From Patescibacteria group bacterium (GTDB lineage: Bacteria; Patescibacteriota; Minisyncoccia; Phycocordibacterales; UBA9973): a DNA stretch of 37,823 nt. The notes below the pieces were generated by a model, which saw only the letters and a list, made by a program, of their open reading frames with translations, was not told the origin of the DNA and made no database searches. Shown here piece after piece: positions 4,675-37,823 of this stretch. The stretch's first letter is position 1. Every line of letters begins with the position of its first letter. The position numbers and the translations under genes are program-made. The stretch is taken from NCBI GenBank assembly GCA_038061035.1, contig JBBUAC010000023.1:1-37823 (forward strand), read 5' to 3'.

Positions 4675-4959
4675 ATGAATACAATAATGACGGTGCGAAT
4701 AGATAGTAAAATAAAGAGTGAGGCTCAAAAAACTTTTGCAAAAATGGGGTTGGATTTATCTTCTGCTGTTAAATTATTTATGAATCAATCTATCCTTGAA
4801 AAAGGACTTCCTTTCAAGCCTAGAACTGTAAACGGATATACAAAAGAGTTTGAAAACAGAATTCTTAATGAGGACAAACAATTGAGTCGTAATATAAAAA
4901 ATGGTAAATCAAAAGGACATAATTCTATAACAAATCTTTATGCTAAACTAATGAACTAA
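4675..4959 (+). CDS. dinJ: RelB/DinJ family antitoxin
   Basis: N-terminal RHH-like VRIDSKIKSEAQKTFAKMGLDLSSAVKLFMNQSILEKGLPF. The gene ends 3 nt before the toxin gene. Confidence 0.8.
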   Translation: MNTIMTVRIDSKIKSEAQKTFAKMGLDLSSAVKLFMNQSILEKGLPFKPRTVNGYTKEFENRILNEDKQLSRNIKNGKSKGHNSITNLYAKLMN

Positions 4960-4962
4960 AAT

Positions 4963-5232
4963 ATGCTTGTTGTTCACTATACATCATCATACAAACGTTC
5001 GTTTAAAAGATATACGCGTTCTGGAAAGTTTCCGTTAGAAAAACTTACAGAAGTTCTTAATTTTCTAAGAGGGGAAAAGCTATTGCCGAACAAATATCGA
5101 GACCATCAACTGAAAGGAAAGTTAGTAGAATTTAGAGAATGCCATATAGCCCCAGACATCTTACTTATTTATAAAATAGAGGGTAACTATCTAAAACTTA
5201 ATAATTTGGGATCACACGGTGAAACATTTTAA
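4963..5232 (+). CDS. yafQ: YafQ family mRNA interferase toxin
   Basis: KYRDHQLKGKLVEFRECHIAPDILLIYKIEGNYLKLNNLGSHGETF matches the YafQ C-terminal signature. Confidence 0.8.
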   Translation: MLVVHYTSSYKRSFKRYTRSGKFPLEKLTEVLNFLRGEKLLPNKYRDHQLKGKLVEFRECHIAPDILLIYKIEGNYLKLNNLGSHGETF

Positions 5233-5260
5233 ATATAAAGTTTTGTAATTCACAATATAT

Positions 5261-5354
5261 AAATAATTTTTAGTGTATAATATATATAGCTTTTAAATTA
5301 TTAATATATTAAAATATCTTTATTATAAAAAAATAATTTATGTCAAAAAGAAAT
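5261..5354 (+). repeat. Duplicated copy of the promoter and first codons of the gene at 6618
   Basis: Block AAATAATTTTTAGTGTATAATA (5261-5282) equals 6583-6604. Block TTTATGTCAAAAAGAAAT (5337-5354) equals 6615-6632. Confidence 0.8.
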
Positions 5355-5363
5355 CTTATCTTA

Positions 5364-8053: not shown

Positions 8054-8578
8054 TTAATTGTTTCCTATGTATTTAATTATTACCCTACGAGAACGACCGT
8101 ATCCTTCGGATTCGGTTTTTAAATCTGTAGCATTAGAAAGAAATTCATGTACTATTCTCCGTTCGTAAGCCGGCATTGGGTCAATCTCTATATTTGATTT
8201 AAAATAACGAGCTCGTTCCGCCATCATATGCACTATTGCATGAACATTTTCTATTCTTTTTTTCTGAAAACCATTCATATCAATAATAATATTTACGTTT
8301 TCGAATGGGATTTTGTTGTCTGTATTGGGAATTAATTCACTATCTTTGTTTTTTGAAAATATTTTATTTTCTATCATTCTGCGAGCAATGTGATTTAATG
8401 CGAAAAGAGCTTCACCTTCACGATTTAAGAAAAAATGTGGTTCTTTTGTTGTGATTTCAAACCATGTTGTTTTTATTTGATTTTCTTTTTCATCTTCTTT
8501 TACAAGAATCTCATCAAAAACTGTTGTGGTTTTTTCAATTAATTCCTTTATTAAGTTTTCTATTTCTTGTTTTTGCAT
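8054..8578 (-). CDS. khpB: Jag/KhpB RNA-binding protein (KH + R3H domains)
   Basis: C-terminal R3H-type MPAYERRIVHEFLS...SEGYGRSRRVII. Position is directly downstream of yidC. Confidence 0.75.
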   Translation of the reverse strand: MQKQEIENLIKELIEKTTTVFDEILVKEDEKENQIKTTWFEITTKEPHFFLNREGEALFALNHIARRMIENKIFSKNKDSELIPNTDNKIPFENVNIIIDMNGFQKKRIENVHAIVHMMAERARYFKSNIEIDPMPAYERRIVHEFLSNATDLKTESEGYGRSRRVIIKYIGNN

Positions 8579-8597
8579 TTTGTATTATTTTTATTTT

Positions 8598-9353
8598 TCA
8601 ATAAAAGCAACTGTTTTGATGTTTGTTTTTATATCTATTGTTGTTGTGTTTTTTTTTATTAAAATAAATTTGTTGCCCAATTGTAAACATATTACTAACA
8701 ATCCAATATAATGCAACAGCTCCAGATATACTATAAGCGATAAAAGTAACCACAAAAGGGAATACATATTTCATTTGTACTTGCATACTTTTGGCAAAAC
8801 TTTCTTGGAATGAACCGGGTTTAGATCCGTCTTGTGCGGGAGGTTTTGGCATATAATGTGCTTGAAAAAACTGAGACACGCCAGCCAAAACAGCTAAAAC
8901 TAAACTTTTTTGACTTATATCTATTAATCCCAAGAAAATTGTATTAATTTTCTCTGGTGTTTTAATAAAAGAGTAAAGTAAACTACCATCAAAATTTAAT
9001 CCTTTAAAGAAAACATAATAAAGCGCGAATATAAAAGGAATTTGTATTAAGACCAAAAGACAACCAGAAAAAGGGTTTGTTTTGTGTTTTTTATAAAGCT
9101 CAAAGGTTTGTTTTGCTTGTTCTTCTTTATTTGATCCACCTTTTTTAATCTTATTTAATTCTGGAGCAAGTAAATTCATTTTAGCCTGACTTTTAATAGA
9201 AGCACCTGAGAGGGGAAATAACAACACTTTAACCAAAATAGTGAGAAATATAACAGCAATACCGATATCTCCACCAGGGATAATTGAAACTAAAAAAGCC
9301 AAAGCATTAAGTAGTGGCTCATATAAGAAAGTATTCCAAATATAACTAAACAT
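8598..9353 (-). CDS. yidC: YidC/Oxa1 family membrane protein insertase (short form)
   Basis: Multi-TM 251-aa ORF in rnpA-yidD-yidC-jag synteny. TAGAAT lies 6 nt upstream of the ATG. Confidence 0.85.
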   Translation of the reverse strand: MFSYIWNTFLYEPLLNALAFLVSIIPGGDIGIAVIFLTILVKVLLFPLSGASIKSQAKMNLLAPELNKIKKGGSNKEEQAKQTFELYKKHKTNPFSGCLLVLIQIPFIFALYYVFFKGLNFDGSLLYSFIKTPEKINTIFLGLIDISQKSLVLAVLAGVSQFFQAHYMPKPPAQDGSKPGSFQESFAKSMQVQMKYVFPFVVTFIAYSISGAVALYWIVSNMFTIGQQIYFNKKKHNNNRYKNKHQNSCFY

Positions 9354-10292: not shown

Positions 10293-11636
10293 ATGGATAT
10301 AAAACTACTTTGGAAAAAATGTTTGGATGAAATAGAGATAGGTATATCAAAAGCAAATTTTAGTACTTGGTTTAAAAATACATCAATATTAAAAGAGGAG
10401 ATGGGTGTTGTTTATGTTGGTGTACCAAATGAATTTGTTAGAGATTGGCTTAAAAATAAATATCACAAATTAATAACCAAAACAATAGCACTAGAATATG
10501 AAAATATGCGTGCTGTGGAATATATCATAATAAAAATAGAAGAAGTACAAAAAGAAATTGATTTTAAAAAAGAACCTTATATAAATAAAGAATTACCGTT
10601 GAGAGATTTATATATAAACCCAGAAGACAACTTAAACCCTAGATATCGTTTTAATTCTTTTATTGTTGGGTCTTTTAATGAATTAGCTTATGCTGCGTCT
10701 CAGGCTATCATAGAGTCTCCTGGTACTAAATATAACCCATTCTTTGTATATGGAAGCACAGGGCTTGGTAAAACCCATTTAATACAAGCTGTTGGAAACT
10801 CAATAAAAGAAAAATATGAAAATAAAAAAGTTCACTATATTACACTTGAGAAATTTGCTACTGATTTTGTAAATTCTCTACAAAATAATAAGGCAAACTC
10901 TTTTAAAGAAAAATATCGTAAATATGACCTTTTAATAATAGATGATATTCAATTTATTGGTAAAATGGAAAAAATACAAGAAGAACTTTTTCATACATTT
11001 AATACTTTTTATGAAAACAATAAACAAATTATATTTTCTTCTGATAAACACCCCAATTACATACCAGAACTAGCAGATCGTTTAAGGTCTAGGTTTGCTC
11101 AAGGAATGATAGTTGATGTTTCTGAGCCAGAATATGAGTCTCGTCTTGCAATATTAAAAGTAAAACTAAGAGAACATGATATTGAATTAGAAAAAGAAAT
11201 AATAGAATACATAGCCTCTAGTATAAGGGGTAATATAAGAGAATTAGAGGGGAGTTTAAATAGTATTGTTTGCCAATATAAATTAAAAAACAAACCATTA
11301 TCTTTACTTGATGTTAAAAATACATTAAAAAATAACATTAAACCTAAAAAAAGTGTTGCTATAAAAGACGTTGTAAAAATAGTAAGTGATTATTATAACT
11401 TAGAAGAACCTTCTATTTATGAAAAAACAAGAAGAAAAGAGATAGTTAAAGCAAGACAAATGGTAATGTATATATTGAGAGAGGATTTTAATGTATCTTA
11501 TCCATTAATCGGACAAAAATTAGGGGGAAAAGACCACACAACTGTAATACATTCTTATTTAAAAATACAAAGAGATTTAAAAGTTGATTCTCAGTTATTA
11601 CAAGAATTAGAACAGATACGAATTATGTTTAAATAG
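10293..11636 (+). CDS. dnaA: Chromosomal replication initiator protein DnaA
   Basis: Walker A GSTGLGKTHL, Walker B LLIIDDIQF, and the C-terminal DNA-binding helix GGKDHTTVIHS. Confidence 0.97.
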   Translation: MDIKLLWKKCLDEIEIGISKANFSTWFKNTSILKEEMGVVYVGVPNEFVRDWLKNKYHKLITKTIALEYENMRAVEYIIIKIEEVQKEIDFKKEPYINKELPLRDLYINPEDNLNPRYRFNSFIVGSFNELAYAASQAIIESPGTKYNPFFVYGSTGLGKTHLIQAVGNSIKEKYENKKVHYITLEKFATDFVNSLQNNKANSFKEKYRKYDLLIIDDIQFIGKMEKIQEELFHTFNTFYENNKQIIFSSDKHPNYIPELADRLRSRFAQGMIVDVSEPEYESRLAILKVKLREHDIELEKEIIEYIASSIRGNIRELEGSLNSIVCQYKLKNKPLSLLDVKNTLKNNIKPKKSVAIKDVVKIVSDYYNLEEPSIYEKTRRKEIVKARQMVMYILREDFNVSYPLIGQKLGGKDHTTVIHSYLKIQRDLKVDSQLLQELEQIRIMFK

Positions 11637-15816: not shown

Positions 15817-16986
15817 ATGAAAGTTGTTATAGATGAGAAAAAAATAGATGAGATTTTAGATATAGGAATAGAAGATATTTTTATTAAAGAAAATTTAAAG
15901 AAAAAACTTCTTTCTGGAAAAATTCTTCGTGTGAAATTTGGTATTGACCCAACTGGTCCTAAAATACATTTAGGGAGAGCAATACCACTTAGAAAATTAC
16001 GACAATTTCAAGACCTAGGGCATAAGGTTATTTTAATTGTTGGTGATTTTACAGCGACCATAGGAGACCCATCAGACAAGCTTGAAAAACGTCCAATGCT
16101 TACAGAAAAAGAAATAAAACAAAATATGAAATATTATACAAAACAACTTGGTATGATTATTGATTTAAAAAAAGCAGAAATTAAATATAATAGTAAATGG
16201 CTTAAAAAATTAAATTTTAAAGAGATAGCTGAATTATCAGAAAGTTTTTCTTTACAACAAATGTCTGCTAGAAGAAATTTTAAAGATAGAATAGAAAAAA
16301 ACGAAGAAATTTCTCTTCGTGAATTTTTATATCCGCTTATGCAAGGATATGATTCTGTCGCCACAAAGTCAGATGTTGAGATTGGGGGTTTTGACCAACT
16401 TTTTAATTTAAAAGCAGGTAGGATTATTCAAAAACATTACAATATGCCAGAACAAGATATTTTGACAGTTAAAATGCTTGAAGGTGTTGACGGAAGAAAA
16501 ATGTCCACTTCTTGGGATAATATTATTACAATCGTTGATGAACCAAAAGATATGTTTGGGAAAATTATGTCTATAAAAGATGAATTAATTTCTAAATATT
16601 TTTTACTTTGTACAGATATAAAAGAAACAGAAATTCCAAAAAGCGAAAATCCTAGAGATGTAAAAATGAAACTTGCTTATGAAATAGTTAAAATTTATCA
16701 CGGAGAAAAAGAAGCCAAAAAAGCAGAAGAGAATTTTGTAAAAACTTTTCAAAAAAAAGAAATTCCAGAAGAAATGATAGAAATTAAAATAAATAAAAAC
16801 GAAACATTGGTGGATGTTTTAATTAAAGAAAAAATTGTTTTTTCAAAAGGGGATTTCAGGAGGTTGATAGAAGAAGGTGCTATTACAGACTTAGATACAA
16901 ATGAGAAATTAAATAACATAAATATTATAACAAAACACGGTATGCATTTAAAAATAGGGAAGAGAAGATTTGTTAAAATAATCTAA
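15817..16986 (+). CDS. tyrS: Tyrosine--tRNA ligase
   Basis: HIGH-type GPKIHLGR, GDFTATIGDPS, GGFDQLFN, KMSTS, and a C-terminal S4-like domain. Confidence 0.9.
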   Translation: MKVVIDEKKIDEILDIGIEDIFIKENLKKKLLSGKILRVKFGIDPTGPKIHLGRAIPLRKLRQFQDLGHKVILIVGDFTATIGDPSDKLEKRPMLTEKEIKQNMKYYTKQLGMIIDLKKAEIKYNSKWLKKLNFKEIAELSESFSLQQMSARRNFKDRIEKNEEISLREFLYPLMQGYDSVATKSDVEIGGFDQLFNLKAGRIIQKHYNMPEQDILTVKMLEGVDGRKMSTSWDNIITIVDEPKDMFGKIMSIKDELISKYFLLCTDIKETEIPKSENPRDVKMKLAYEIVKIYHGEKEAKKAEENFVKTFQKKEIPEEMIEIKINKNETLVDVLIKEKIVFSKGDFRRLIEEGAITDLDTNEKLNNINIITKHGMHLKIGKRRFVKII

Positions 16987-16993
16987 TTTAAAT

Positions 16994-17027
16994 AAAAAAA
17001 ACGGAAGCAAGGCGTCCGTTTTTTTTA
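16994..17027. terminator. Bidirectional intrinsic terminator
   Basis: A-run, then ACGGAAGC-AAG-GCGTCCGT stem-loop, then T-run. Confidence 0.75.
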
Positions 17028-17031
17028 TTTT

Positions 17032-17184
17032 TTAATGAAACCTGTTGTCTGGGTCTTCCTCTTCTTCTTCAAATTTAAAACTATTATTTATACCATCATC
17101 GTCATCTAATAATAATTCATCGTCTTCATCTTCTACTCCAACACCAAAACCAGAAACATCTTCATCTTCATCATCGTAACTCAT
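17032..17184 (-). CDS. Possible small, highly acidic protein (50 aa)
   Basis: My own translation gives MSYDDEDEDVSGFGVGVEDEDDELLLDDDDGINNSFKFEEEEEDPDNRFH. I found no recognisable promoter or SD. Confidence 0.3.
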   Translation of the reverse strand: MSYDDEDEDVSGFGVGVEDEDDELLLDDDDGINNSFKFEEEEEDPDNRFH

Positions 17185-17303
17185 TTTTTTATCTATAATA
17201 TTAATTAATAATAGATTTTAATTTTTAAAAACGACCATTTTAAAAACCATTTTTAAAAATATATTCTTTTGTATCAAAATATAAAAGTCTTGGCAATAAA
17301 ATA

Positions 17304-17312
17304 TGTGGATAA
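17304..17312. promoter_or_regulatory. Perfect DnaA box TGTGGATAA outside oriC
   Basis: Exact reverse complement of the consensus TTATCCACA. The 14-mer TATGTGGATAACTT also occurs at 20575-20588. Confidence 0.5.
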
Positions 17313-17318
17313 CTTATA

Positions 17319-17813
17319 TTAATATTTTTTTATATATGCAAAAGCAGTTAATGCTATAGCTATCGCGTCTAGTTCATCATCGTTTTTTTGACTTTCTTGT
17401 TGTTTTTTATCGTAATTTAAATCAACTAATTTTTCTACCATTTTTAATATTTGTTTTTTATCTGCTCTACCATAACCAGTAATCGCTATTTTTATTTGAA
17501 GTGGAGATACTTCAAAAATTTTTAGCTGAGAAGAAATTCCTTCGTATATTATCACACCTCTCACCTCTGCTACACGCATTGCTGTTTTCTGATTTGTATT
17601 TAAAAATAAAGTTTCAATAGCGAGTATTTCTGGTTTGTATTTTTTTATTATATTTTTTATTTCTATGCCAATTAAAAATATTCTTTCTTCAAATTTTAAT
17701 TTAGCCGAAGTTTTAAAACATTCAGAAAAAACAACTTTTTCTTTTCCAGAAGTTTTTTCTAAAATTGCTATACCAAGTCTTTCATAACCTGGATCTATTC
17801 CTAAAATTCTCAT
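17319..17813 (-). CDS. ruvC: Holliday junction resolvase RuvC
   Basis: MRILGIDPGYERLGIAILE with catalytic Asp/Glu pattern. TATAAT lies 7 nt upstream of the ATG. Confidence 0.92.
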   Translation of the reverse strand: MRILGIDPGYERLGIAILEKTSGKEKVVFSECFKTSAKLKFEERIFLIGIEIKNIIKKYKPEILAIETLFLNTNQKTAMRVAEVRGVIIYEGISSQLKIFEVSPLQIKIAITGYGRADKKQILKMVEKLVDLNYDKKQQESQKNDDELDAIAIALTAFAYIKKY

Positions 17814-17833
17814 AATAAGAATTATAAATTAAA

Positions 17834-17877
17834 AATTACGAATTACGAATTTAATTTTTAATTCGTAATTGATAATT
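17834..17877. repeat. ATTACGA-heptad hairpin (family copy 4) between yebC and ruvC
   Basis: Left arm AATTACGAATTACGAATT (17834-17851). Right arm AATTCGTAATTGATAATT (17860-17877), with the outer half degenerate. Confidence 0.65.
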
Positions 17878-17889
17878 ACTAATTTGTTT

Positions 17890-18426
17890 TTATTCCGCAT
17901 TAGTAAATACATCTTGCACATCATCGTTGTTTTCTAAGTCATCTACTAGTTTTTCGAGCAATACTAATTCTTCATCAGTCGGGGAGGTGGTTGTTTGTGG
18001 TATCCACACAAGTCCTTCAGGTGATATTTCTTTTTGAAAAGCCCAAACTACGGATCCTATACCAGCCAAGGCTGTACCATTTTCAACTAATATATGTTTT
18101 ACATCTTGAGCAGTTCTGTTTTTATTGTCTGTAAGAGTTTCTATTATTACACCCACTCCTCCTGGCCCATAGGCTTCATACATTATATTTTCCATACTTA
18201 CATTAGAATATGTTGCTTTTTTCACCGCTCTTTCAATAATCTCTTTCGGCATATTTACTTTTTTTGCTTTTTCTATAGCACTACGAAGTCCTGGAGAATC
18301 TTTACCACCTGAGAGCCTAGCTTCCACAGATATATATTTTACTAATTTAGAAAAAATCTTACTTTTTTTAGCATCAGTAATTCCTTTTTTATGTTTTATT
18401 TGCGACCAACGATTATGACCAGACAT
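17890..18426 (-). CDS. yebC: YebC/PmpR family DNA-binding regulator (short form)
   Basis: MSGHNRWSQIKHKKG...NRT motif. ATG at 18426 is preferred over the upstream GTG at 18447. Confidence 0.85.
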   Translation of the reverse strand: MSGHNRWSQIKHKKGITDAKKSKIFSKLVKYISVEARLSGGKDSPGLRSAIEKAKKVNMPKEIIERAVKKATYSNVSMENIMYEAYGPGGVGVIIETLTDNKNRTAQDVKHILVENGTALAGIGSVVWAFQKEISPEGLVWIPQTTTSPTDEELVLLEKLVDDLENNDDVQDVFTNAE

Positions 18427-19417: not shown

Positions 19418-20533
19418 TTAAGTGTTTAATATATCTGTTATGTTTTTTGAAGTTATCAAAGTGACAGGAGTATCTGGATATGCATTTTTCCAGGCACGGG
19501 TTTTGATTGAAGTTTCACTCCACTTACATTCAAAAGCTTCTAATTTTTCATATGTTTCTTCTACTAAATCAATCTCACTGCCATCTTTGGTTCGCCAAAA
19601 ATATGGACGAGTATGGTTACCTGATTTTTGATATTGTTTTATTCTTTCACTTATAAAAAAGTTTTCAAACAAAGACCCCTTATCATGTCTTTTGTCTAAA
19701 GAATTAAAATTATCAAGAAGAGCATTTTTTATTCCAGTATCATAAAAGAATATTTTTTCAAATCTAGTAACTTCATTACGTTTGTTTTTAGAAAGTGGCG
19801 GAAGTCTAAATATTATAAATGCTTGTTCTAATATTTTTATATATTGCATAATTGTTTGTCTGCTAACTTCCAATTTTTGAGCTATCTCATTATACGAAAC
19901 TTGGTTACCTGATTGTAAAGCAAGTAATCTAACTAATTTTTCTAAAATAATTGGCTTTCTAACTGTATCTATTTTTAAAATATCTCTAAAAAGATAATCA
20001 TTTGCAATAATTTTTAAATCAAAAGAGGGGTTTGTTGAAGAGATGATTCCAGGATACATTCCATACAATATTCTTTGTTCTAAAAGTCTCTTAGATTCCA
20101 ATTCACCAACAGTGTTTGAGTATTCTTGATATGAAATTGGATAAAGCATAAATGGTATATTCCTACCAGTTAAAGGTTCTAAAATTTTATTTGCCAACTC
20201 AAAAGAAGAAGAACCTGTAGCTATTATTTTTATTTCTGGATAAGTGTCGTGAAGAAGTTTTAAAGAAAGACCGATATTTTCCACTCTTTGGGCTTCATCA
20301 AGTACTACAAAAGTAGCATTTTTTATAAAAGCTTTCATTGCAGAAGAGGTTTTATTTGAAAAAGCTTCACGAATATCAGGTTCATCACACGAAAGGTAAA
20401 GACCATTGTGTTCTTTGATAATTTCTTTTACAAGTGTTGTTTTGCCAACTTGTCTAGCTCCATAGAGTATGGTAATTCTCGGGTCATTTAAAGATTCAAT
20501 TATTTTATTTTTTAACCATCTTTTTATAAGCAT
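19418..20533 (-). CDS. AAA+ ATPase, AAA_14 + DUF4143 (COG1373-like), paralog 3
   Basis: Walker A LYGARQVGKTTL, Walker B FVVLDEAQ, ATGSSS motif. TATAAT (20541-20546 on the plus strand as ATTATA) lies 7 nt upstream of the ATG. Confidence 0.85.
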   Translation of the reverse strand: MLIKRWLKNKIIESLNDPRITILYGARQVGKTTLVKEIIKEHNGLYLSCDEPDIREAFSNKTSSAMKAFIKNATFVVLDEAQRVENIGLSLKLLHDTYPEIKIIATGSSSFELANKILEPLTGRNIPFMLYPISYQEYSNTVGELESKRLLEQRILYGMYPGIISSTNPSFDLKIIANDYLFRDILKIDTVRKPIILEKLVRLLALQSGNQVSYNEIAQKLEVSRQTIMQYIKILEQAFIIFRLPPLSKNKRNEVTRFEKIFFYDTGIKNALLDNFNSLDKRHDKGSLFENFFISERIKQYQKSGNHTRPYFWRTKDGSEIDLVEETYEKLEAFECKWSETSIKTRAWKNAYPDTPVTLITSKNITDILNT

Positions 20534-20576
20534 ACTTATTATTATATGCCTAAAAAAGCAATTGTAAATCCAATTA

Positions 20577-20585
20577 TGTGGATAA
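20577..20585. promoter_or_regulatory. Perfect DnaA box TGTGGATAA outside oriC
   Basis: Exact consensus, with the same flanks as the box at 17304-17312. Confidence 0.5.
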
Positions 20586-20624
20586 CTTTTTTAGTTTTTC
20601 TTTTTATAATTTTTAACTTTATAA

Positions 20625-20702
20625 TTAATCTTTTTCAATTCCTAAATGTTCATAGGCTTTATTTGTAGCAATGCGTTCGCGGGCGGTGAGTTCGGGAAGC
20701 GG
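20625..20702 (-). pseudogene. Orphan fragment encoding a RuvB C-terminus
   Basis: The minus strand translates to PLPELTARERIATNKAYEHLGIEKD*. Compare the intact RuvB end TPRGRMATQKAYEHLGFDLPEN*. Nucleotide similarity to 21331-21400 is roughly 75% by eye. Confidence 0.7.
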
Positions 20703-20704
20703 GG

Positions 20705-20959
20705 TTATTGGTCGGTGTATTGATGAAGAACTGAGGTCACAAGTGTCTGATATGGTATACCTTTTTCTACTGCGCGGACTTTAAGCTTCGCAAGGTCACG
20801 CAAAGATAGGCGGATATTGATATTTTTGGTTTTGTCGAGTGTGGATTTAGCAATTGACTGGAATCTTTTTAATTCACTTTTTGGCCTAGTAATCATTTTG
20901 TCATTTTCAATCGCGCTTAATATTTCTTCTTCTTCTTTTGTTAGTTCATAGTATTTCAT
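20705..20959 (-). CDS. brnA: BrnA family antitoxin
   Basis: C-terminal INIRLSLRDLAKLKVRAVEKGIPYQTLVTSVLHQY. Confidence 0.8.
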   Translation of the reverse strand: MKYYELTKEEEEILSAIENDKMITRPKSELKRFQSIAKSTLDKTKNINIRLSLRDLAKLKVRAVEKGIPYQTLVTSVLHQYTDQ

Positions 20960-20960
20960 A

Positions 20961-21245
20961 TTATTTTTTCTTTTTATTAATAATAAATTTTTTCGTCATT
21001 TTTCTGCTTGGGATAATTGTTTTCAAAAATATTTTTTCGTCGTCTTCTACAAAAGGAACAATATAAGCGTATTCTCTTATCTCGACAATAAGGACGCTTT
21101 GTGAAGGATATCTTGTCTTGTTTGGATGATCAGATATCTCAATCGTACTACCATTTTGGATTGCTAGGACAACTTCTTCAAATCCTACATTTCGTTCTGC
21201 TTTGAGTTTATCATTTTTTTCAATATTCCAATCAAAATACTTCAT
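20961..21245 (-). CDS. brnT: BrnT family (DUF497/COG2929) toxin
   Basis: YFDWNIEKNDKLKAERNVGFEEVV N-terminal signature. The toxin precedes the antitoxin with a 1-nt gap. TATACT lies 6 nt upstream of the ATG. Confidence 0.7.
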   Translation of the reverse strand: MKYFDWNIEKNDKLKAERNVGFEEVVLAIQNGSTIEISDHPNKTRYPSQSVLIVEIREYAYIVPFVEDDEKIFLKTIIPSRKMTKKFIINKKKK

Positions 21246-29717: not shown

Positions 29718-29790
29718 GTCCGCTCGGTAGGAATCGAACCTACGACCATCTCCTTAAAAGGGAGCTGCTCTACCGACTGAGCTACGAGCG
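29718..29790 (-). tRNA. tRNA-Lys (anticodon UUU)
   Basis: Hand-folded cloverleaf: acceptor CCGCTCG/CGAGCGG, D arm GCTC-AGTCGGTA-GAGC, anticodon loop CTTTTAA, T arm GTAGG-TTCGATT-CCTAC. No CCA is encoded. Confidence 0.85.
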
Positions 29791-29847
29791 GATATATTTA
29801 TTTAACCGAAAGAACAAATCTCGTGAATAATCTATTGAAGCCGCTAC

Positions 29848-29865
29848 AACTGAGCTACGAGCGGA
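29848..29865 (-). repeat. Duplicated 18-nt fragment of the tRNA-Lys 5' part
   Basis: ACTGAGCTACGAGCGGAT is identical to 29775-29792. The surrounding sequence does not fold as a tRNA. Confidence 0.75.
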
Positions 29866-29932
29866 TTATAATAACAAATTTAAATATATAGCAAATATAC
29901 TTTAAAATCAAGAAAGATGTTAAAATAAAAAT

Positions 29933-30067: not shown

Positions 30068-30545
30068 GTTTTTAAAAGAAAATATTGTAATACTTCATAA
30101 TATACGAAGTATAGAAAATGTTGGTGCAATGTTTCGTACTTGTGACGCTGTAGGTATAGATAAAATATATTTATCTGGATACACTCCGACACCACTTGAT
30201 AGATTTGGCAGAAAAAGAAAAGATTTAGCAAAGTCTGCACTAGGGGCAGAGGAATTTGTGCCATGGGAGCAGAAGAAAAATTTTTTTTCTTTAATAAAAA
30301 AACTTAAAATACAGGGTTTTAATATTATAGGGATAGAGCAAGATAAAAATTCTGTGAATTATAAAAAATTAAATTTTAAATTAAAAGATAAAAATGTTTT
30401 TATTGTTGGGTCAGAAGTTACAGGTATATCAAAAAATATTTTAACAAAGTGTAGTGTTATAGTTGAGATACCAATGAAAGGTAAAAAAGAATCTCTTAAT
30501 GTATCTGTAGCACTGGGTGTAGTTTTATTTTCTAGTATAATATAA
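30057..30545 (+). CDS. SpoU/TrmH family RNA 2'-O-methyltransferase
   Basis: NIRSIENVGAMFRTCDAVG, GSEVTGIS, IPMKGKKESLNVSVALGVVLF (SPOUT knot motifs). Confidence 0.85.
   Translation: MVNKFLKENIVILHNIRSIENVGAMFRTCDAVGIDKIYLSGYTPTPLDRFGRKRKDLAKSALGAEEFVPWEQKKNFFSLIKKLKIQGFNIIGIEQDKNSVNYKKLNFKLKDKNVFIVGSEVTGISKNILTKCSVIVEIPMKGKKESLNVSVALGVVLFSSII
30487..30536 (+). repeat. 50-bp direct repeat, left copy (3' end of the trmH-like gene)
   Basis: AAGAATCTCTTAATGTATCTGTAGCACTGGGTGTAGTTTTATTTTCTAGT is identical to 37663-37712. Confidence 0.95.
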
Positions 30546-30550
30546 AGATT

Positions 30551-33436
30551 ATGTTTCTTTTGTTAAAAAAGACATTGAAATTTGTAATTATAATTATTAT
30601 AGTCATTTTCACCTTTTCTGGATCAATTTTTATATCAGCATTTTTTGCACAGTTTATTATCAATATGCAAAATGTGGATATTACACTCGGTTCACTTGAG
30701 AGTTCAGATACTGAATTCACAGTTTCTTTTGCTCCATCTTCTGGTGTAAATAATGAGTCATATCGTATCACTGCATTTTCTAATTGTAATCAAAATGAAT
30801 ATGATGATTTTGGAAATTGTATTGATCTTGTTCCTAATTTATGCCCATATCTTTCTCTCCAGCCAAAGAACGAAGAGATAACAGAAATTGGTTTTACTCA
30901 AAACTTATCTGATTTTCAAGCCACGGGTCAATTAAATAATCCTGATGATGAAATTGATATATGGAATCTCTCAATTAAATCCCCGTGTTTTGAAGGAGAA
31001 TGCCCCACCGATTATGATGAATTTCAAAATGGTGCTCCGTTGCCACAAATACTTAAAAACCAAACCTTTAAATGCGTTCTTTCTGTAGAAACAAGTGACA
31101 TTCCCGAACTTGTTAAAAATTATTTAGAAAAAAATATTATTTATGCAGATGATTTTATAAATTCTCTTGAGGTGTCGGCAATATTTACAGGAGAACTTCC
31201 AGGTTGTATCACTGATTGTTTTTCAAATGTTTTATTTTTGCCTGGGATGATGGGGTCAAAACTTTATGAAGCAGGACTTGATTGTGATGATGTATTTGTA
31301 GGAAATGAATGTGGAGATAAAACTATATGGGTTTCTATATTTGATAATTTACAAAAAAAGCTTTCGCTTGATGCACTAGGAAAAAGTATTAACAACCTTT
31401 TTACTAAAAATGATACCCAATATGACGGGGGAAATGAAATGGGTATTATAGACGAGATAGGTGTTTTTAATATTTATAAATCTTTTATTTCTGATTTAAA
31501 GAAGTGGAAAGAAGAGGAAAAAATAATAGAGGACTATGCTTTTATTCCGTATGACTGGAGATTGTCGCTAGAAGATATTATTTCAAATGGAAAAGTTTTA
31601 GAAGAAAATCTTTCATATACAAATTCTCAAAATTTTGAAGAATCATTTATTTTAAAAAAATTAGAAGAACTTCAAAAAACTTCCAAATCAGGCAAGGTCA
31701 CTATTCTAGCTCACTCTAATGGTGGTTTAGTGACTAAAGCATTGATGCAAAAATTAAAAGATACAAACAATCCTCTCTATGAAAAAATAGACAAAATTAT
31801 TTTTGTAGCTGTGCCTCAAGTTGGAACACCAGAAGCATTTGTGAGTTTGCTTCATGGAGTAAAAGTTGGCAAGGGATTTGTAATGAATGCTGACATGGCT
31901 CGCAACTTGGCTGAAAATATGCCGACAATTTATAATTTACTTCCTTCAGAGAATTATTTTACCAATCTTCAAATTCCATTTACTTTAGATAAACTAATAT
32001 CGTTTCAAGATAAAGAAATATTTAAAAAAGAAATATCTAAATATGATTTAATGATAGATAATTATTCAGAACTTAAAGCATATATTTTAGGAAAAGAAGA
32101 AAGAGACAAACCATCATTTGAAGATACAAGGAATCCAAATATTGGTAACTCTTTTTTATATGATCAAGCACAAGCCGTGCATCAAATATTGGATAATTGG
32201 CAACCATCATCAGAAACTAAAGTTATACAAATAGCTGGTTGGGGAGAGGAAACTATAGCAAGCATAGAATACAAAGAATATATTACTAGAGAATGTAAGG
32301 ATGGTATTTGCGGACCAAGTTCAAAAATTTCTTATAAAATTAAAAAAGTCATTGACGGCGACGGAACTGTTGTTGTCCCCAGTACTCTTTTTATGTCTCC
32401 ATCAGAAAACATTGAGAGATGGTGGGTGGATTTGAAAGAAATTAATCGTGGTAAATTAAGAAAATATAATCATAAAGACATTTTAGAAATCCCAAACTTA
32501 AGAGATTTTATTAAATCTAAAACAAAAGATGAAGTTTTGTTTATTGATTCAGAAAATATTGTTTTAAACAATAATTTAAATCTTAAATCAAGTAAATCTC
32601 GTCTCCACTTTCAACTCCACTCACCGTTATACCTTGGAATAATTGATAATGAAGGAAGATATACAGGTATTGACCCAATTACAAAAGAAATAAAGGAAGA
32701 AATTCCAGATGTTACATATCAACAAATAGGCGAAGTACAATTTCTTTCTATTTCATATGGATTAGAATATACATTAAAACTTCAAGGTTATACTGAAGGT
32801 AGTTTTTCTTTAGATATAGACAAACAAGAAGGGAATGAAATAACAGAGTCTGCTTCATTTCAAGGTATTCCATCAGACTCTAATACTTTAGCTACTTTAG
32901 CAATAGATACAAATTTCAAAGTAGGAGATTCTGTATTAAATATTGATAATAATGGAGATAAAACAACTGACATTACTTTAATAGCTATATTAAATGGGAC
33001 AACATTATACGAAGAGTCAAAAGAATTATCATCTAAATCAATAATTTATTCTGGAAATTCCCAAGAAAATCCATCTGCGTCCGGAGCAGTAAATATATTT
33101 ATGATTGCACAAAATAATAAAACAGATAATATTGTGTATGAAGAAAATATAGAGCAAATAAAAAATCAAATAGAGAAAAAAGAAGAAGTTTCTGAAATAA
33201 ATATAGTAAATAATAAAATTAAAAAGAATAATTTTAAACCAAAGATAGAAGTTGCAAAAAATATAGAAGATAATTTAAAAACACCACAAAAAACAGAAGT
33301 AGAATCAAAAAATGAAGTTTTTCCACTTCAAGCTTCAGTGGTAGAATTTAACACAAATAATTCAGCAAAATTGCCAATAATTATTGTTTCTTTGTTTTTA
33401 GTCGGTATTATTATTTTTAAATTTATTAAGGTATAA
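30551..33436 (+). CDS. Large cell-surface protein with an LCAT/PGAP1-like alpha/beta-hydrolase (lipase/acyltransferase) domain
   Basis: N-terminal and C-terminal TM segments and a Cys-rich N-terminal region. FLPGMMGSKLYE, nucleophile elbow ILAHSNGGL, DGDGTVVVP, and a later NHKDIL as candidate His. Confidence 0.6.
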   Translation: MFLLLKKTLKFVIIIIIVIFTFSGSIFISAFFAQFIINMQNVDITLGSLESSDTEFTVSFAPSSGVNNESYRITAFSNCNQNEYDDFGNCIDLVPNLCPYLSLQPKNEEITEIGFTQNLSDFQATGQLNNPDDEIDIWNLSIKSPCFEGECPTDYDEFQNGAPLPQILKNQTFKCVLSVETSDIPELVKNYLEKNIIYADDFINSLEVSAIFTGELPGCITDCFSNVLFLPGMMGSKLYEAGLDCDDVFVGNECGDKTIWVSIFDNLQKKLSLDALGKSINNLFTKNDTQYDGGNEMGIIDEIGVFNIYKSFISDLKKWKEEEKIIEDYAFIPYDWRLSLEDIISNGKVLEENLSYTNSQNFEESFILKKLEELQKTSKSGKVTILAHSNGGLVTKALMQKLKDTNNPLYEKIDKIIFVAVPQVGTPEAFVSLLHGVKVGKGFVMNADMARNLAENMPTIYNLLPSENYFTNLQIPFTLDKLISFQDKEIFKKEISKYDLMIDNYSELKAYILGKEERDKPSFEDTRNPNIGNSFLYDQAQAVHQILDNWQPSSETKVIQIAGWGEETIASIEYKEYITRECKDGICGPSSKISYKIKKVIDGDGTVVVPSTLFMSPSENIERWWVDLKEINRGKLRKYNHKDILEIPNLRDFIKSKTKDEVLFIDSENIVLNNNLNLKSSKSRLHFQLHSPLYLGIIDNEGRYTGIDPITKEIKEEIPDVTYQQIGEVQFLSISYGLEYTLKLQGYTEGSFSLDIDKQEGNEITESASFQGIPSDSNTLATLAIDTNFKVGDSVLNIDNNGDKTTDITLIAILNGTTLYEESKELSSKSIIYSGNSQENPSASGAVNIFMIAQNNKTDNIVYEENIEQIKNQIEKKEEVSEINIVNNKIKKNNFKPKIEVAKNIEDNLKTPQKTEVESKNEVFPLQASVVEFNTNNSAKLPIIIVSLFLVGIIIFKFIKV

Positions 33437-33445
33437 TATATTTAT

Positions 33446-33859
33446 ATGAATAAAATTATTGAGTGGTTTACAAGAAAGAAATTAATTATAGTAAGTATAT
33501 TATCATTGATATTATTATTTTTAATTGAAGTAGATAATGTAACTCATTTTTTATGTAAATTAAAAAATTATAAGTGTTATGATTTATTTGATTTTATTTT
33601 TTTGATACTTCTTTTTTTTGTATTATTATCAATACCAATTTTATTAACTTTTATTTTTAAAAATAAAGATATTTTTGATTTTTGGAAAAAAACTTTATTT
33701 ATCTATTTTTTTATTTATCTATTTTTTATTATATTAGTTCCTTGGAATTGGGGAGATGTATATTTACCAATATATAAAGGAACTGTTGCATTAGCTTTAA
33801 ATATTTTATTTTTAATTTTCTCTATTATTTTTATTATTTATAAATCCATCAAAAAATAA
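33446..33859 (+). CDS. Polytopic membrane protein of unknown function
   Basis: 137 aa with about 4 hydrophobic segments. TATAAT lies 8 nt upstream of the ATG. Confidence 0.5.
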   Translation: MNKIIEWFTRKKLIIVSILSLILLFLIEVDNVTHFLCKLKNYKCYDLFDFIFLILLFFVLLSIPILLTFIFKNKDIFDFWKKTLFIYFFIYLFFIILVPWNWGDVYLPIYKGTVALALNILFLIFSIIFIIYKSIKK

Positions 33860-33887
33860 GTCATTTTTGTGCTAGAATAGGATTTAT

Positions 33888-36800
33888 ATGAAAGATTACT
33901 TACAAGAAATTCAAAAATATTTTTATGATGAAAACAGCTCTGAACATTCATATCGGACTTCTTTTGAAAATTATTTAAAAGAAATTTTTCCAAAAGAAAA
34001 AGGTTATTTTACACAACAAGACCAAAGAGCTATAAATGGAAATAAACCTGATTTTATTATATTTAAAAATAAAGTTCCCTTACTTTATATAGAAGTTAAA
34101 AAAGTTGGGGAAGATTTAGATAAAATTGAAAAATCTGATCAAGCTGATAGATACTTCGGTTACAGCAACTTGATAATTAGCGATTACGTTAATTTTAGGT
34201 TTTTTAGAAATGGGCAGAAATACAATGAAGAAATTTCTCTCGGAGATATAGATAAAAACGGAAGATATATAAAAATAAAAAATGAAAACTCTGATTATTT
34301 AATAAAAACAATTTTAGATTTTGTTTCTTCTAATAAAGAACCAATTAAGAGTGGAGTACATCTTGCAAAAATAATGGGAGGAATAGCAAAGCGTGTTAGG
34401 TCTAATGTATTAGAAATGCTTTTTTCTAAATCAGAGCGTTATATAGAATTGTTTAAAATAAGGGATGTTGTGAAAGAGAATTTGATTTCAAGTCTTGACG
34501 ATAATTCTTTTGCAGATATGTATGCGCAGACTTTAGTTTATGGTCTTTTTTCAGCTCGATATAATGATACAACACTTAATAATTTTTCCCGTATTGAAGC
34601 TCGGGAACTTATACCAAAAACAAATCCATTTTTAAGATCTTTCTTTGACCATATTGCAGGAAATACTTTTCCAGAAAGACTACGATTTATTGTTGATGAA
34701 TTATGTGAAGTTTTTACTCATGCCCATGTGCATAATCTTATGCATGAGTATTTTAAAAAAGAAAGTTTGTTTGGAGAAGTATATGAAAGTCCTGATCCAG
34801 TTATTCATTTTTATGAAGATTTCTTGCGTGAATATGATGTAAAAAAGAAAATGGAAATGGGAGTTTTCTACACACCTCGTCCAGTAGTACAATTTATTGT
34901 TCGCGCGGTGGATAGTATTTTAAAAAGTGAATTTAATCTTTTAAAAGGTTTGGCTGATAAAACCAAAATACAAATAGAAAGAAAAGAAATAGATAAAAAG
35001 GGAAAAACAATTAAGATTCAAAAAGAATATCACAAAGTTCAAATTCTTGATGTGGCTACAGGCACAGGAACATTCTTAAATGAAGTCATTAAACATATTT
35101 ATAAAGATTTTATTGGTCAAGAGGGTCATTGGCCATCATATGTAGAAGATAATCTTTTGCCAAGATTGCATGGTTTTGAGCTGATGATGGCTTCTTATAC
35201 TATTGCTCATTTGAAATTAGGTATGACACTTCAGGACACAAAGGCTGGGGAATTAAAAACTCGTTTGGGGGTATATCTTACAAATACACTTGAAGCTTCG
35301 GTGGACTATGCAAATCAAGGTACTTTATTTGGTTTAATGGATAGTATCGCTCAAGAAAGTAAAAGTGCTTCAAAGATAAAATCAGAATACCCCATTATGT
35401 GTGTAATTGGGAATCCACCATATAGTGGTGTTTCTCAAAATAAAATTTATACCGACAATAATGTTTATAAAGTAGAGATAGGAGGCAAACAAAAACTTCA
35501 AGAAAGAAAACATTGGTTGGATGATGATTATGTTAAATTTATTCGCTTTGCTGAAAGTCTAATAGAGAAAAATGAGGAGGGAATTATTGGAATGATTACT
35601 GCTCATGGATATATTGATAACCCTACATTTCGGGGAATGCGATGGCACTTGAGAAACACTTTTGACAAAATTTACATTCTAGATTTACATGGAAATAGTA
35701 ATAAGGGGGAAATAAGCCCTGATGGATCAAAAGACGGTAATATTTTTGATATTAAAACCGGTGTAGCTATAATTTTAGGAATTAAAAATTCTAACATTAA
35801 AAATAAAAAATTGGCACAAGTTTTAAAAGCAGATTTCTATGGAATTCGTGCAGAAAAATTTAAAAAATTGGATATTTCAAATATTGATAAAATAGATTGG
35901 ACAAAACTACCAGAAAATACAGATTTATGGGTTCTTGAAGGAGTGGGTAAAACTGAATATAAAAAAGGGTTTTCTGTCGCTGAGCTGTTTCCCAAAAATA
36001 CAACAGGAATTGTAACTGGAATAGATAAATTATCCATTTTTTACACAAAGGATGAATTAGAAAAAATAACGAAATCTATCCTAAATTCAAATAATCCCTA
36101 TGTAGAATTTAATATTAAGGATGGAAGAAAATATAAAAAAGAAGAAAGATTAAAAGAATTAAAAGAAGCATCAGAAGATAAACCGACTTTAATTTCTTAT
36201 AGGTCTTTTGATGATAGGTGGATGTATTATACAAAAGGATCAGAAGTTTGGATTAATTCTCCAAGATTTGAGATAATGCAAAATTTTATAAATAAAGATA
36301 ACTTAGGATTAATTGTTTGTAAGCAAGTAAAAAGTGGAGATTCATGGCAACATTTAAGTATCTCTAAAAATATAATTGAATCGTCTTTCATTTCTAATAA
36401 AACTGGAGAAATAAATTCTAGTTTACCTCTGTATTTATATACAGAACAAGGAGAAAAGATTCCAAACTTAAACAAAGAAATTTGCGAGAAAATAAATGAG
36501 GAAGCAGGAGAAACAACGCCAGAAAATATTCTGGATTATATATACGCAGTTTTACATTCACCTAAATATCGAGAAACCTATAAAGAATTTTTGAAAATAG
36601 ATTTTCCTCGTGTGCCATATCCGACTGACAAAAAAGAATTTGAAAGATTAATTAAACTTGGAGAAAAATTAAGAAATCTGCATTTAATGATTGACCCAGA
36701 TTGTGAAAGATTTATTACAAAATATTCTGTAGCGGGTGGTAATTTTGTGGAAAAAGTAAAATACGAAAATGGTAATGTTTATATAAATACTACTCAAAAT

Positions 36801-36977
36801 TTTAAAGGTGTTCCAGAAATTGTTTGGAATTTTTATATTGGAGGTTATCAACCTACACAAAAATATCTAAAAGATAGAAAAGGAAAACAACTAAATAGTG
36901 ATGAAATAGAACATTATCAGAAAATAATTAAAGTTTTATTTGAGACTAATAAGATAATGAAGGAGATAGATAAATAA
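33888..36977 (+). CDS. Single-chain Type IIG/IIL (MmeI-like) restriction-modification enzyme
   Basis: N-terminal PD-ExK candidate KPDFIIF...YIEVKK. MTase motif I ILDVATGTGTFL, motif IV GNPPYSG. The C-terminal target-recognition/Type ISP-like region includes YIYAVLHSPKYRETYKEFLKIDFPRVPYP. Confidence 0.8.
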   Translation: MKDYLQEIQKYFYDENSSEHSYRTSFENYLKEIFPKEKGYFTQQDQRAINGNKPDFIIFKNKVPLLYIEVKKVGEDLDKIEKSDQADRYFGYSNLIISDYVNFRFFRNGQKYNEEISLGDIDKNGRYIKIKNENSDYLIKTILDFVSSNKEPIKSGVHLAKIMGGIAKRVRSNVLEMLFSKSERYIELFKIRDVVKENLISSLDDNSFADMYAQTLVYGLFSARYNDTTLNNFSRIEARELIPKTNPFLRSFFDHIAGNTFPERLRFIVDELCEVFTHAHVHNLMHEYFKKESLFGEVYESPDPVIHFYEDFLREYDVKKKMEMGVFYTPRPVVQFIVRAVDSILKSEFNLLKGLADKTKIQIERKEIDKKGKTIKIQKEYHKVQILDVATGTGTFLNEVIKHIYKDFIGQEGHWPSYVEDNLLPRLHGFELMMASYTIAHLKLGMTLQDTKAGELKTRLGVYLTNTLEASVDYANQGTLFGLMDSIAQESKSASKIKSEYPIMCVIGNPPYSGVSQNKIYTDNNVYKVEIGGKQKLQERKHWLDDDYVKFIRFAESLIEKNEEGIIGMITAHGYIDNPTFRGMRWHLRNTFDKIYILDLHGNSNKGEISPDGSKDGNIFDIKTGVAIILGIKNSNIKNKKLAQVLKADFYGIRAEKFKKLDISNIDKIDWTKLPENTDLWVLEGVGKTEYKKGFSVAELFPKNTTGIVTGIDKLSIFYTKDELEKITKSILNSNNPYVEFNIKDGRKYKKEERLKELKEASEDKPTLISYRSFDDRWMYYTKGSEVWINSPRFEIMQNFINKDNLGLIVCKQVKSGDSWQHLSISKNIIESSFISNKTGEINSSLPLYLYTEQGEKIPNLNKEICEKINEEAGETTPENILDYIYAVLHSPKYRETYKEFLKIDFPRVPYPTDKKEFERLIKLGEKLRNLHLMIDPDCERFITKYSVAGGNFVEKVKYENGNVYINTTQNFKGVPEIVWNFYIGGYQPTQKYLKDRKGKQLNSDEIEHYQKIIKVLFETNKIMKEIDK

Positions 36978-37020
36978 TATTTTTAGTTGATTAGTTATTT
37001 TTTTAGTATAATATACACAT

Positions 37021-37242
37021 ATGACAAGAATGGCATTTGATTCAATTTTTATAAGAAATTCAGATGGTACATTAGAACCTCGCCAAGTTGTTCGAATTGG
37101 TGGTGTCACAATGGGACCAGGTGTTAAATTTGGAGAAGGAGTATCTTTTGGCGGAATTGATCTTACAAAGTTTTTAGGAAGAGCTTTTGAAGTTCAAACT
37201 GATAATGGAGTTCTTGTAATAACTGGTATTTATGGACAATAA
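37021..37242 (+). CDS. Small hypothetical protein (73 aa, Gly/Val-rich)
   Basis: TATAAT at 37007-37012 lies 8 nt upstream of the ATG. It overlaps the next ORF by 11 nt. Confidence 0.45.
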   Translation: MTRMAFDSIFIRNSDGTLEPRQVVRIGGVTMGPGVKFGEGVSFGGIDLTKFLGRAFEVQTDNGVLVITGIYGQ

Positions 37243-37585
37243 AAATAAACAATCAGAAAATATAATAAAAATAGCGGATCCTCAATTTGAAGGAAAAGAG
37301 ATATTACAGCATGGGATAAGGCAAATTTTAGGTCAGTTAAGAGATATAAAAAAGACATTTAATTATATATTAACTTCTGTAATTGTTGTTTTAGCTTTAG
37401 GATTTATAACTCTTTTATTTATGGTTGCGACCATGATGATTGATAGCTGGAATTTTAATTCTACTATTTATAAAGAGAACAAAGTTTTAGAAGTAAATTC
37501 TAAAATAATTCAGAATAATTCTAATGAACAACAGGATATAAATAAACGTTTAGATAAAATAGAATTTTTATTAAAAATACGATAA
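37232..37585 (+). CDS. Small membrane protein (117 aa, one TM plus a C-terminal coiled-coil-like part)
   Basis: TM segment ILTSVIVVLALGFITLLFMVATMMI. It appears translationally coupled to the 73-aa ORF. Confidence 0.45.
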   Translation: MDNKNKQSENIIKIADPQFEGKEILQHGIRQILGQLRDIKKTFNYILTSVIVVLALGFITLLFMVATMMIDSWNFNSTIYKENKVLEVNSKIIQNNSNEQQDINKRLDKIEFLLKIR

Positions 37586-37662
37586 GTGCGGAGTATTAAT
37601 GATACTACATATAAAGTAACTATAGTTAAAATAGTGTAGTAAGGACGGTTCCTGCTATAACT

Positions 37663-37712
37663 AAGAATCTCTTAATGTATCTGTAGCACTGGGTGTAGTT
37701 TTATTTTCTAGT
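37663..37712 (+). repeat. 50-bp direct repeat, right copy (orphan 3' end of the trmH-like gene)
   Basis: Identical to 30487-30536, and continues TTA TAA in the same frame. Confidence 0.95.
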
Positions 37713-37720
37713 TTATAAAA

Positions 37721-37752
37721 AACTTACAGAAATACAAACTTTTCTGTAAGTT
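37721..37752 (+). terminator. Intrinsic terminator following the orphan trmH 3' end
   Basis: 12-bp stem AACTTACAGAAA / TTTCTGTAAGTT with an 8-nt loop, then a T-rich tail. Confidence 0.75.
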
Positions 37753-37768: not shown

Positions 37769-37823
37769 TTACCAATAAATTTCCCCTGTGCCAACTGGTG
37801 GAAGTGGTTTTATATAAGGTCCG
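37769..37823 (-). CDS. 3' end of an unidentified minus-strand gene that continues beyond the window
   Basis: The minus strand reads ...GPYIKPLPPVGTGEIYW* with a TAA at 37769-37771. Confidence 0.3.
   Translation of the reverse strand, partial: GPYIKPLPPVGTGEIYW

Follow-up and report, generated by a model that had tools for sequence, protein, structure and literature searches.

How are accessory genes added at the end of a housekeeping gene if neither these genes nor their surroundings encode a recombinase? This question is raised by a contig of 37,823 bp, analyzed here in its entirety and referred to as the window, which belongs to a Patescibacteria bacterium from a Hainich groundwater metagenome assembly (GenBank JBBUAC010000023.1). 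At the 3′ end of trmH, this contig carries an apparently inserted segment of 7,126 bp, including a restriction-modification gene, between two exact copies of a 50-nt direct repeat. We consider it an even proposition that the segment is a non-autonomous islet that was inserted here in one event, thereby duplicating its target, and that it belongs to the class termed "insertion with long target duplication". In the following, the evidence for the insertion is presented first, and then the mechanisms that may have produced it are weighed.

The repeat was recovered by a repeat search as well as by an exact-pattern search, and 100 shuffles of the window that preserved its dinucleotides gave no comparable match, not even one with 3 mismatches. 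Perfect 50-bp repeats had already been reported in the initial annotation of this DNA, which was made from the letters alone, and this part of it is confirmed. With two mismatches allowed, the match extends to 55 nt (30482-30536 versus 37658-37712): directly left of the 50-nt core, AA at 30485-86 faces CT at 37661-62, preceded by TAA as 3 further matching nucleotides. Local alignments of the flanks scored no better than shuffled sequence, so the borders of the repeat are sharp on both sides, and a longer decayed trmH fragment outside the repeat was rejected. The left copy encodes a conserved stretch of the TrmH C-terminus, within which K-E-S-L-N-V-S-V-A is invariant across 20 homologues in a C-terminal alignment (7,458 TrmH homologues were found, the closest outside the species being 83% identical). 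After this copy, trmH ends with ATA ATA TAA (30537-30545; protein ...FSSII*). The last two codons and the stop codon are thus supplied by the inserted DNA, in agreement with the earlier proposal of a replacement 3′ end. The right copy reads ...FSSL*, with an in-frame TAA upstream at 37658-37660, continues with TTA TAA and is followed by a hairpin between convergent genes. Right copy and hairpin (14 bp, initially given as 12) are the former end of trmH, as had been suspected. The hairpin probably once terminated transcription from both sides, that of trmH and that of the unit formed by a 47-aa open reading frame (ORF) and ruvA; because it is AT-rich, it is missed by a GC-based terminator scan. 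In longer contigs (L001/L098, L097), the 47-aa ORF is followed by ruvA on the minus strand and then by rpsT on the plus strand.

The details of the right junction also bear on homology-facilitated illegitimate recombination during natural transformation, by which a donor fragment with trmH and cargo would have been anchored in the recipient trmH and joined at its far end 50 nt before the recipient stop codon. This process would give the observed order of intact gene, cargo and orphan tail. The microhomology at the right junction comprises 3 nt (TAA) only, beside the two mismatches, as would fit such a joint, and most of the reported insertions with long target duplication come from naturally competent species. 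In the donor, the cargo would already have had to adjoin trmH 6 nt short of its end, a second unexplained event within the same 56 nt, and the process does not predict that the perfect identity stops abruptly at AGT in both copies. We regard this origin as improbable.

For comparison with related species, one genome per species was used, giving 80 trmH loci, and cargo homologues were sought within 10 kb. In 67 of the 80 species trmH is followed by a convergent ruvA at a distance of 0.9-5.7 kb, compared to 7.4 kb in the window. The nearest relatives outside the species (TrmH 83% and 79% identical) show trmH, then fpg and ruvA in convergent orientation, then rpsT in the direction of trmH. An LCAT-like or Type IIG homologue was found near trmH in none of the 80 species. 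In each of them, with TrmH identities of no more than 83%, trmH has one tail only; no second copy was detected, and blastn-short searches of each tail against its own locus returned terminator-like inverted matches only. Since the order of trmH and ruvA is conserved in related species without the cargo and without a second tail, sequence comparison indicates that the segment is an insertion specific to this lineage, which interrupts the conserved convergent trmH-ruvA junction. Empty sites, for which a search had been suggested at the outset, were seen in other species only.

The trmH-ruvA interval as a general hotspot was rejected; the longer intervals sampled among the relatives hold fpg, a Mur ligase gene, a gene for a TrmB-type regulator and a patatin-like gene, and no defense or mobile genes. 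The patatin-like phospholipase gene (PF01734) lies directly after trmH on the same strand in one related species (L042, 10540-11340), where it occupies the position that the gene for the LCAT-like lipid hydrolase has in the window. In some relatives a conserved intergenic element of about 100 nt was seen just 3′ of trmH (L011 2580-2690, L013 ~10490-10590, L018 ~4600-4700). It contains the hairpin CTGGCGAAGCTTCGCCAG and the string GCGAACTGCTCGTCG, has no Rfam match and is absent from the window.

A chimeric join through the repeat would produce a spurious junction, and contigs of several assemblies indeed break near the locus, inside the repeat as well as at 29774, 33781-33835 and 37823. Thirteen contigs agree at every base of the left junction; they derive from wells H52, H51 and H32, from two Logan assemblies and from a second NCBI genome. 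Five contigs agree likewise on the right junction, and one 11.3-kb contig (L001/L098) crosses both. The Logan contigs end within the repeat, at precisely the point at which a k=31 graph has to branch. The overlap of two contigs (L006 and L097, 55 nt) gives an apparent assembler k of 55, which exceeds the 50-nt repeat. Because both junctions recur in separate samples and assemblers and one contig spans both, an assembly chimera is excluded in practice, and an artefact is hardly conceivable.

Two of the break points could be described further. The window and two other contigs (L002, L100) all end at the identical base 37823, within the 47-aa ORF and 111 nt past the right repeat; L001 and L097 continue, and this position is probably another strain-level branch point. 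Directly upstream of the tRNA-Lys(UUU) gene (29718-29791, minus strand), tandem units of 73 nt were observed (window 29774-29866; L002 4395-4558), each holding the first ~20 nt of the tRNA gene. The window has 1.3 copies, and L002, L003 and L016 have one more. Four contigs begin exactly at 29774, which marks it as an assembly break point.

No integrase, transposase or relaxase was detected by Pfam searches of the contig ORFs of at least 90 aa, supplemented by alternative-frame ORFs of at least 60 aa in the insert; their absence between the repeats had been noted before, and it extends to the whole 37.8-kb contig. The repeats had been interpreted as the classic signature of attL and attR attachment sites. 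The attL/attR-like geometry is present, while the interpretation itself receives no specific support, as recombinase-free long target duplication has the same geometry. The attL/attR interpretation corresponds to an integrase-type island resembling a cis-mobilizable element (CIME), in which the repeats would be attL and attR of a tyrosine or serine recombinase targeting the trmH 3′ end, the integrase having been lost or being encoded elsewhere and acting in trans. CIMEs belong to the integrase-less remnants of integrative elements; the ICESt1/ICESt3 family lies in the 3′ end of fda of Streptococcus thermophilus. CIMEs are catalogued in ICEberg 2.0 (PMC6323972). The islet shares with them attL/attR-like repeats at the 3′ end of a housekeeping gene, the lack of recombination and transfer genes, and defense cargo. 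Integration at a gene 3′ end with an element-supplied replacement end, sharply bordered direct repeats, and a repeat covering a highly conserved coding motif, which is a typical choice of attachment site, argue for such an island as well, and the left end of the contig has genes resembling those of a type IV secretion system (T4SS), a hint that the genome harbors conjugative elements.

Against it stands, besides the missing integrase, that neither a site-specific recombinase beside an att site nor a cognate integrase-bearing element nor any other use of the trmH tail as a site was found on the contig or in the 80 related species. In the latter, the trmH-ruvA intervals contain no repeat of the trmH tail and no LCAT-like or Type IIG homologues, and the long intervals sampled contain no recombinase. 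The repeat is longer than typical cores and shows no evident dyad-symmetric core of the att type. Furthermore, in other genomes the modules of the cargo travel separately from each other and without integrases. Taken together, we rate an island of this type as possible, although on the unlikely side.

Other element classes were rejected. An integrative mobile element exploiting Xer (IMEX), which would sit at dif in the terminus region between 28-bp XerC/XerD sites, was dismissed because the locus lies ~20 kb from dnaA/dnaN and rnpA/yidC and is thus close to the origin; no inverted-repeat pair inside the 50-nt repeat is among the pairs listed, and likeness to dif was judged by eye only. For a DDE transposon or a composite insertion sequence (IS), there is no transposase, the duplication measures 50 nt, and no inverted repeat joins the ends of the insert among the 25 longest of 101 pairs listed. 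A prophage or phage satellite was rejected, as phage genes and viral relatives are lacking: no relatives of the repeat or of the LCAT-like, 73-aa and 117-aa genes were found in IMG/VR, and none of the 73-aa protein among GenBank phages. Matches to PHROG families are weak and partial: three concern short stretches of the Type IIG enzyme (best E 1.6e-6), and another two, both marginal, the 117-aa protein, whose family has a distant likeness to XhlA as the sole phage hint.

The features of the locus are listed in Table 1.

Table 1. Features at the 3′ end of trmH in the 37,823-bp window (aa, amino acids; AF2, AlphaFold2)
Feature	Position	Strand	Remarks
trmH, SpoU/TrmH RNA 2′-O-methyltransferase, 162 aa	30057..30545	+	PF00588, E 1.9e-34
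Left repeat copy	30487..30536	+	encodes KESLNVSVALGVVLFSS, conserved TrmH C-terminal stretch
Inserted segment, 7,126 bp	30537..37662	+	all five genes in trmH direction
LCAT-like alpha/beta hydrolase, 961 aa	30551..33436	+	PF02450, E 3.7e-14
Hydrophobic membrane protein, 137 aa	33446..33859	+	no Pfam family; conserved partner of LCAT-like gene
Type IIG restriction-modification enzyme, single polypeptide, 1,029 aa	33888..36977	+	PADLOC REase_MTase_IIG, E 1.2e-254
73-aa protein, first of overlapping pair	37021..37242	+	predicted all-beta, low confidence; AF2 pLDDT 54
117-aa protein, distantly XhlA-like	37232..37585	+	11-nt overlap with 73-aa gene; 10 homologues
Non-coding right arm of insert	37586..37662		no Rfam match
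Right repeat copy with TTA TAA	37663..37718 (repeat 37663-37712; TTA TAA 37713-37718)	+	relic of original trmH 3′ end, now non-coding
AT-rich hairpin, 14 bp, 8-nt loop	37719..37754		-15.7 kcal/mol, between convergent genes
47-aa ORF, 3′ end, runs off window	37769..37823	-	continued in longer contigs L001/L098, L097

The insert has a GC content of 27.9%, compared to 28.8% for the rest of the contig, and the intergenic gaps from trmH onward are 5, 9, 28, 43 and -11 nt. A -10 box had been proposed to arise at the left junction for the first cargo gene, but this finds no support. A promoter scan reports no promoter ending there, and the 59 promoter-like matches in this AT-rich region are background (51.8 ± 6.0 expected). 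For the LCAT-like gene, expression by read-through from trmH is the simpler inference, because the gap is only 5 nt and there is no terminator between the two genes. As judged by eye only, the LCAT-like protein has hydrophobic N- and C-terminal segments. The annotation of the cargo holds in general, except that the enzyme initially called MmeI-like belongs to Type IIG and has a C-terminal domain like that of Type ISP enzymes; true MmeI domains stay below the Pfam cut-off. Its domains comprise a nuclease (HSDR_N, weak), a gamma-class methyltransferase (N6_Mtase, PF02384) and a specificity domain (Type_ISP_C, PF18135, E 2.4e-74). The 73-aa protein belongs to a family of 266 representative clusters at E<=1e-3. 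For the 117-aa protein, AF2 predicts one long helix (residues 17-116, pLDDT 79), with a hydrophobic stretch in the middle by eye, and XhlA (PF10779) matches 3 of the 10 family members (best E 1.2e-7). The AF2 models of both small proteins offered nothing worth a fold search. Concerning structured RNA in the arms, Rfam gave the tRNA-Lys only.

The cargo had been described as coherent. This view was not upheld, since three modules were each found separately elsewhere and the locus is polymorphic among conspecific strains. The LCAT-like gene and its 137-aa partner also occur as a pair in a distant contig (L123, 34% identity). The closest homologues of the Type IIG gene (79-89% identical) stand alone among housekeeping genes at unrelated places, without the other cargo genes, and the distant matches to plasmids concern the Type IIG gene only. 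The pair of genes for the 73-aa and 117-aa proteins (73/117 pair) was found on its own in one contig (L116, 9274-9808), beside a M.C5/R.HinP1I/Vsr system in others (L110-L115), in one of which (L111) a helix-turn-helix (HTH)/SocA-Panacea gene comes next, and directly after a true MmeI gene in L031 (16605-16911). In the last case, the 73-aa copy is 92% identical, and the nucleotide identity to the window of ~91% begins exactly at the ATG of the 73-aa gene. The non-coding right arm is not conserved with the pair in other genomes, and an exact scan of metagenome contigs for right arm plus repeat gave 0 matches in a collection that holds part of the Hainich assemblies only. Sequence comparison thus shows the islet to be a mosaic in which three or more modules, namely LCAT/137-aa, Type IIG and 73/117, have histories of their own. 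A search for the cargo at other loci with a trans-acting integrase had been suggested at first; elsewhere, the modules occur without integrases.

Counting the window, the 73/117 pair lies beside three different restriction-modification systems (Type IIG, MmeI, M.C5/R.HinP1I/Vsr), and it may be a defense-associated or selfish two-gene module. In L031, a contig of Nomurabacteria RIFCSPLOWO2_12_FULL_40_42, an IS30-like element (HTH_38 and rve, 338 aa, minus strand; 16911-17940) cuts the 117-aa homologue after ~35 codons.

Among conspecific strains, the right part of the islet is not constant. In haplotype B (L002), the 137-aa gene is followed by ~250 unrelated bp (8551-8810) and then directly by the 47-aa ORF; the restriction-modification gene, the 73/117 pair, the right repeat and the hairpin are lacking. 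Haplotype C (L122, 1384-1548) has another, unrelated sequence to the right of the 137-aa gene and, like haplotype B, has neither the restriction-modification gene nor the 73/117 pair nor the right repeat. Neither haplotype is a simple deletion between the two repeat copies. These strains share the left junction and the LCAT/137-aa pair with the window, which speaks for an origin in two steps: LCAT/137-aa would have resided after trmH for a long time, and the orphan tail with the hairpin would have arrived later, together with the restriction-modification and 73/117 module from another strain. The conservation of the pair in a distant genome and the assembly breaks at the boundary of the 137-aa and restriction-modification genes are in line with this. 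A donor with the restriction-modification module inserted inside trmH would be needed, an LCAT-like gene follows trmH in no relative, and the scheme is less parsimonious than one insertion with subsequent replacement of the right part; we give it little credence.

The ~250 bp of haplotype B hold three copies of AAAAAGGTGTCAGGA and, as read by eye, a short minus-strand ORF beginning MKLFLSAMKK. Polymorphism was also observed within the left module. Compared to the window, L004 is 99-100% identical up to ~32200 and then 43-74% identical, with a 137-aa allele of 46% identity; L016 diverges at 33186; and the LCAT-like gene of L122 is 79% identical. Between otherwise near-identical strains, the 137-aa protein and the LCAT-like protein in its C-terminal half (32200-33859) are thus hypervariable, which points to replaced alleles or to a surface-exposed part under diversifying selection.

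The search for a circular junction, which had been recommended, yielded one contig with the predicted arrangement. L103 (sample H51_01um_R3, 1,187 bp, 2.65x coverage) contains the end of the 73-aa gene, the 117-aa gene, the right arm, the repeat, ATAATATAAAGATT and the first 165 codons of the LCAT-like gene. Excision as a circle would create such a junction, as would a second copy in tandem, and a mis-join would fit as well. Left of the repeat, L103 has AA and not CT. Because the combination of AA with the right arm occurs in no other contig, real reads with this sequence must exist. For the CIME-like explanation, L103 resembles an attP junction; the AA, compared to CT at the right junction of the window, means that L103 is not a simple excision product of the window arrangement.

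The geometry of intact gene, insert and orphan tail is that of a single-crossover product, and it does not indicate the enzyme. Under the reading as an insertion with long target duplication, the duplicated target would be the last 50 nt of trmH, originally perhaps 55 nt. A single Campbell-type crossover between the chromosomal trmH and a circular copy of the segment carrying a trmH tail would have given rise to the repeat, and host homologous recombination on the 50-55 nt of identity, not a dedicated integrase, would have performed it. The repeats would now permit looping-out of the RecA type or tandem amplification, either of which would explain L103, and within the species the islet could spread by ordinary homologous replacement via its flanks. 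This reading is preferred over an integrase-type island because the contig has no recombinase, relatives do not use the site, and the modules move elsewhere without integrases; the preference is moderate.

Several points weigh against this reading. A site-specific integrase would leave an equal geometry and could be encoded elsewhere in the genome. A conspecific empty site was not present in the data searched, empty sites and a single-copy target being seen across species only, and the exact TrmH protein of an empty site (...FSSL) is absent from a collection of 15 billion proteins. Haplotypes B and C keep the left junction without the right repeat; accordingly, the repeat might reflect the acquisition of the right-hand module alone. 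Neither the closest Type IIG homologues nor the other 73/117 loci are surrounded by long flanking repeats. How long target duplication works at the molecular level has, to our knowledge, never been demonstrated. Finally, L103 is a single contig at low coverage, in which the repeat measures 55 nt; since the repeat length of this strain equals the apparent k, a wrong exit from the repeat may have produced a mis-join, and the chance that the L103 junction is real is about even.

Recombinase-less insertions with long target duplication are already established in other phyla. They are said to have been described first in H. pylori, by Nobusato et al. in 2000, and descriptions from other bacteria date from 2000 to 2010. 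The class name for such restriction-modification units comes from Kobayashi's group (Furuta, Abe and Kobayashi 2010, PMC2853133). As in the published units, the islet holds restriction and modification functions in an insert of <20 kb between target-duplicating repeats of >30 bp and has no mobility gene such as a transposase or integrase gene. In H. influenzae, 46-bp repeats overlap a gene 3′ end, as the repeat does here, and its length is also near that of the 47/47-bp repeat around an insertion in T. thermophilus, where a Type IIG gene is part of the insert (PMC2853133). Unlike in these units, the restriction-modification gene is one of three modules and is missing in some strains; the host belongs to the Patescibacteria (candidate phyla radiation, CPR), a group outside that survey, and a possible circle or tandem junction contig is available.

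A further comparison is offered by phage 21 and e14, which integrate into icd with a substitute 3′ end that keeps the gene intact, while the displaced end stays downstream. Likewise, the islet supplies a substitute trmH 3′ end and the original end remains downstream; those prophages carry their own integrase, whereas the islet has no phage genes and no matches in the viral collections. For groundwater Patescibacteria, restriction-modification systems have been reported on predicted islands, with transfer mostly between Patescibacteria (PMC12455944). Phylum, type of habitat and the presence of restriction-modification systems on islands are the same as here; those islands were predicted with IslandViewer4 on concatenated contigs, and the terms "direct repeats", "integrase" and "recombinase" are absent from the main text of that paper.

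Elsewhere on the contig, accessory genes (99-6497, 19418-21245) surround the origin region with rnpA, yidC, dnaA at 10293 and dnaN. Among their products are a TraG-like P-loop ATPase, a protein that combines T4SS-pilin and VanY domains, a RelB antitoxin, a BrnT toxin and three AAA_14/DUF4143 ATPase paralogues (2285-3421, 5364-6497, 19418-20533), and no relaxase or integrase was seen among them.

Beyond its origin, the islet raises the question of whether it is still mobile. Restriction-modification units with long target duplication are known to amplify in tandem via their repeats, and for the "release" step of a virus-like life cycle proposed for such units there is no experimental support (PMC2853133). 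That the islet runs a recombinase-free cycle in a living CPR population, forming circles or tandem copies via the 50-55-nt repeats and re-entering the trmH tail by homologous crossover, is an idea we consider rather doubtful. If it were true, natural evidence for the release step would be available for the first time, and if the L103 junction is real, repeat-driven release of restriction-modification units would be testable with existing reads. The islet provides a well-resolved example, including polymorphism at the population level, in a phylum where such detail is rare. How accessory genes are gained and swapped in Patescibacteria, with their tiny genomes and few recognizable mobile-element genes, is poorly understood, and this locus is a case at base-pair resolution: defense and surface genes appear to have been added without an element-encoded recombinase, with the target gene left intact, and are polymorphic within one groundwater population.

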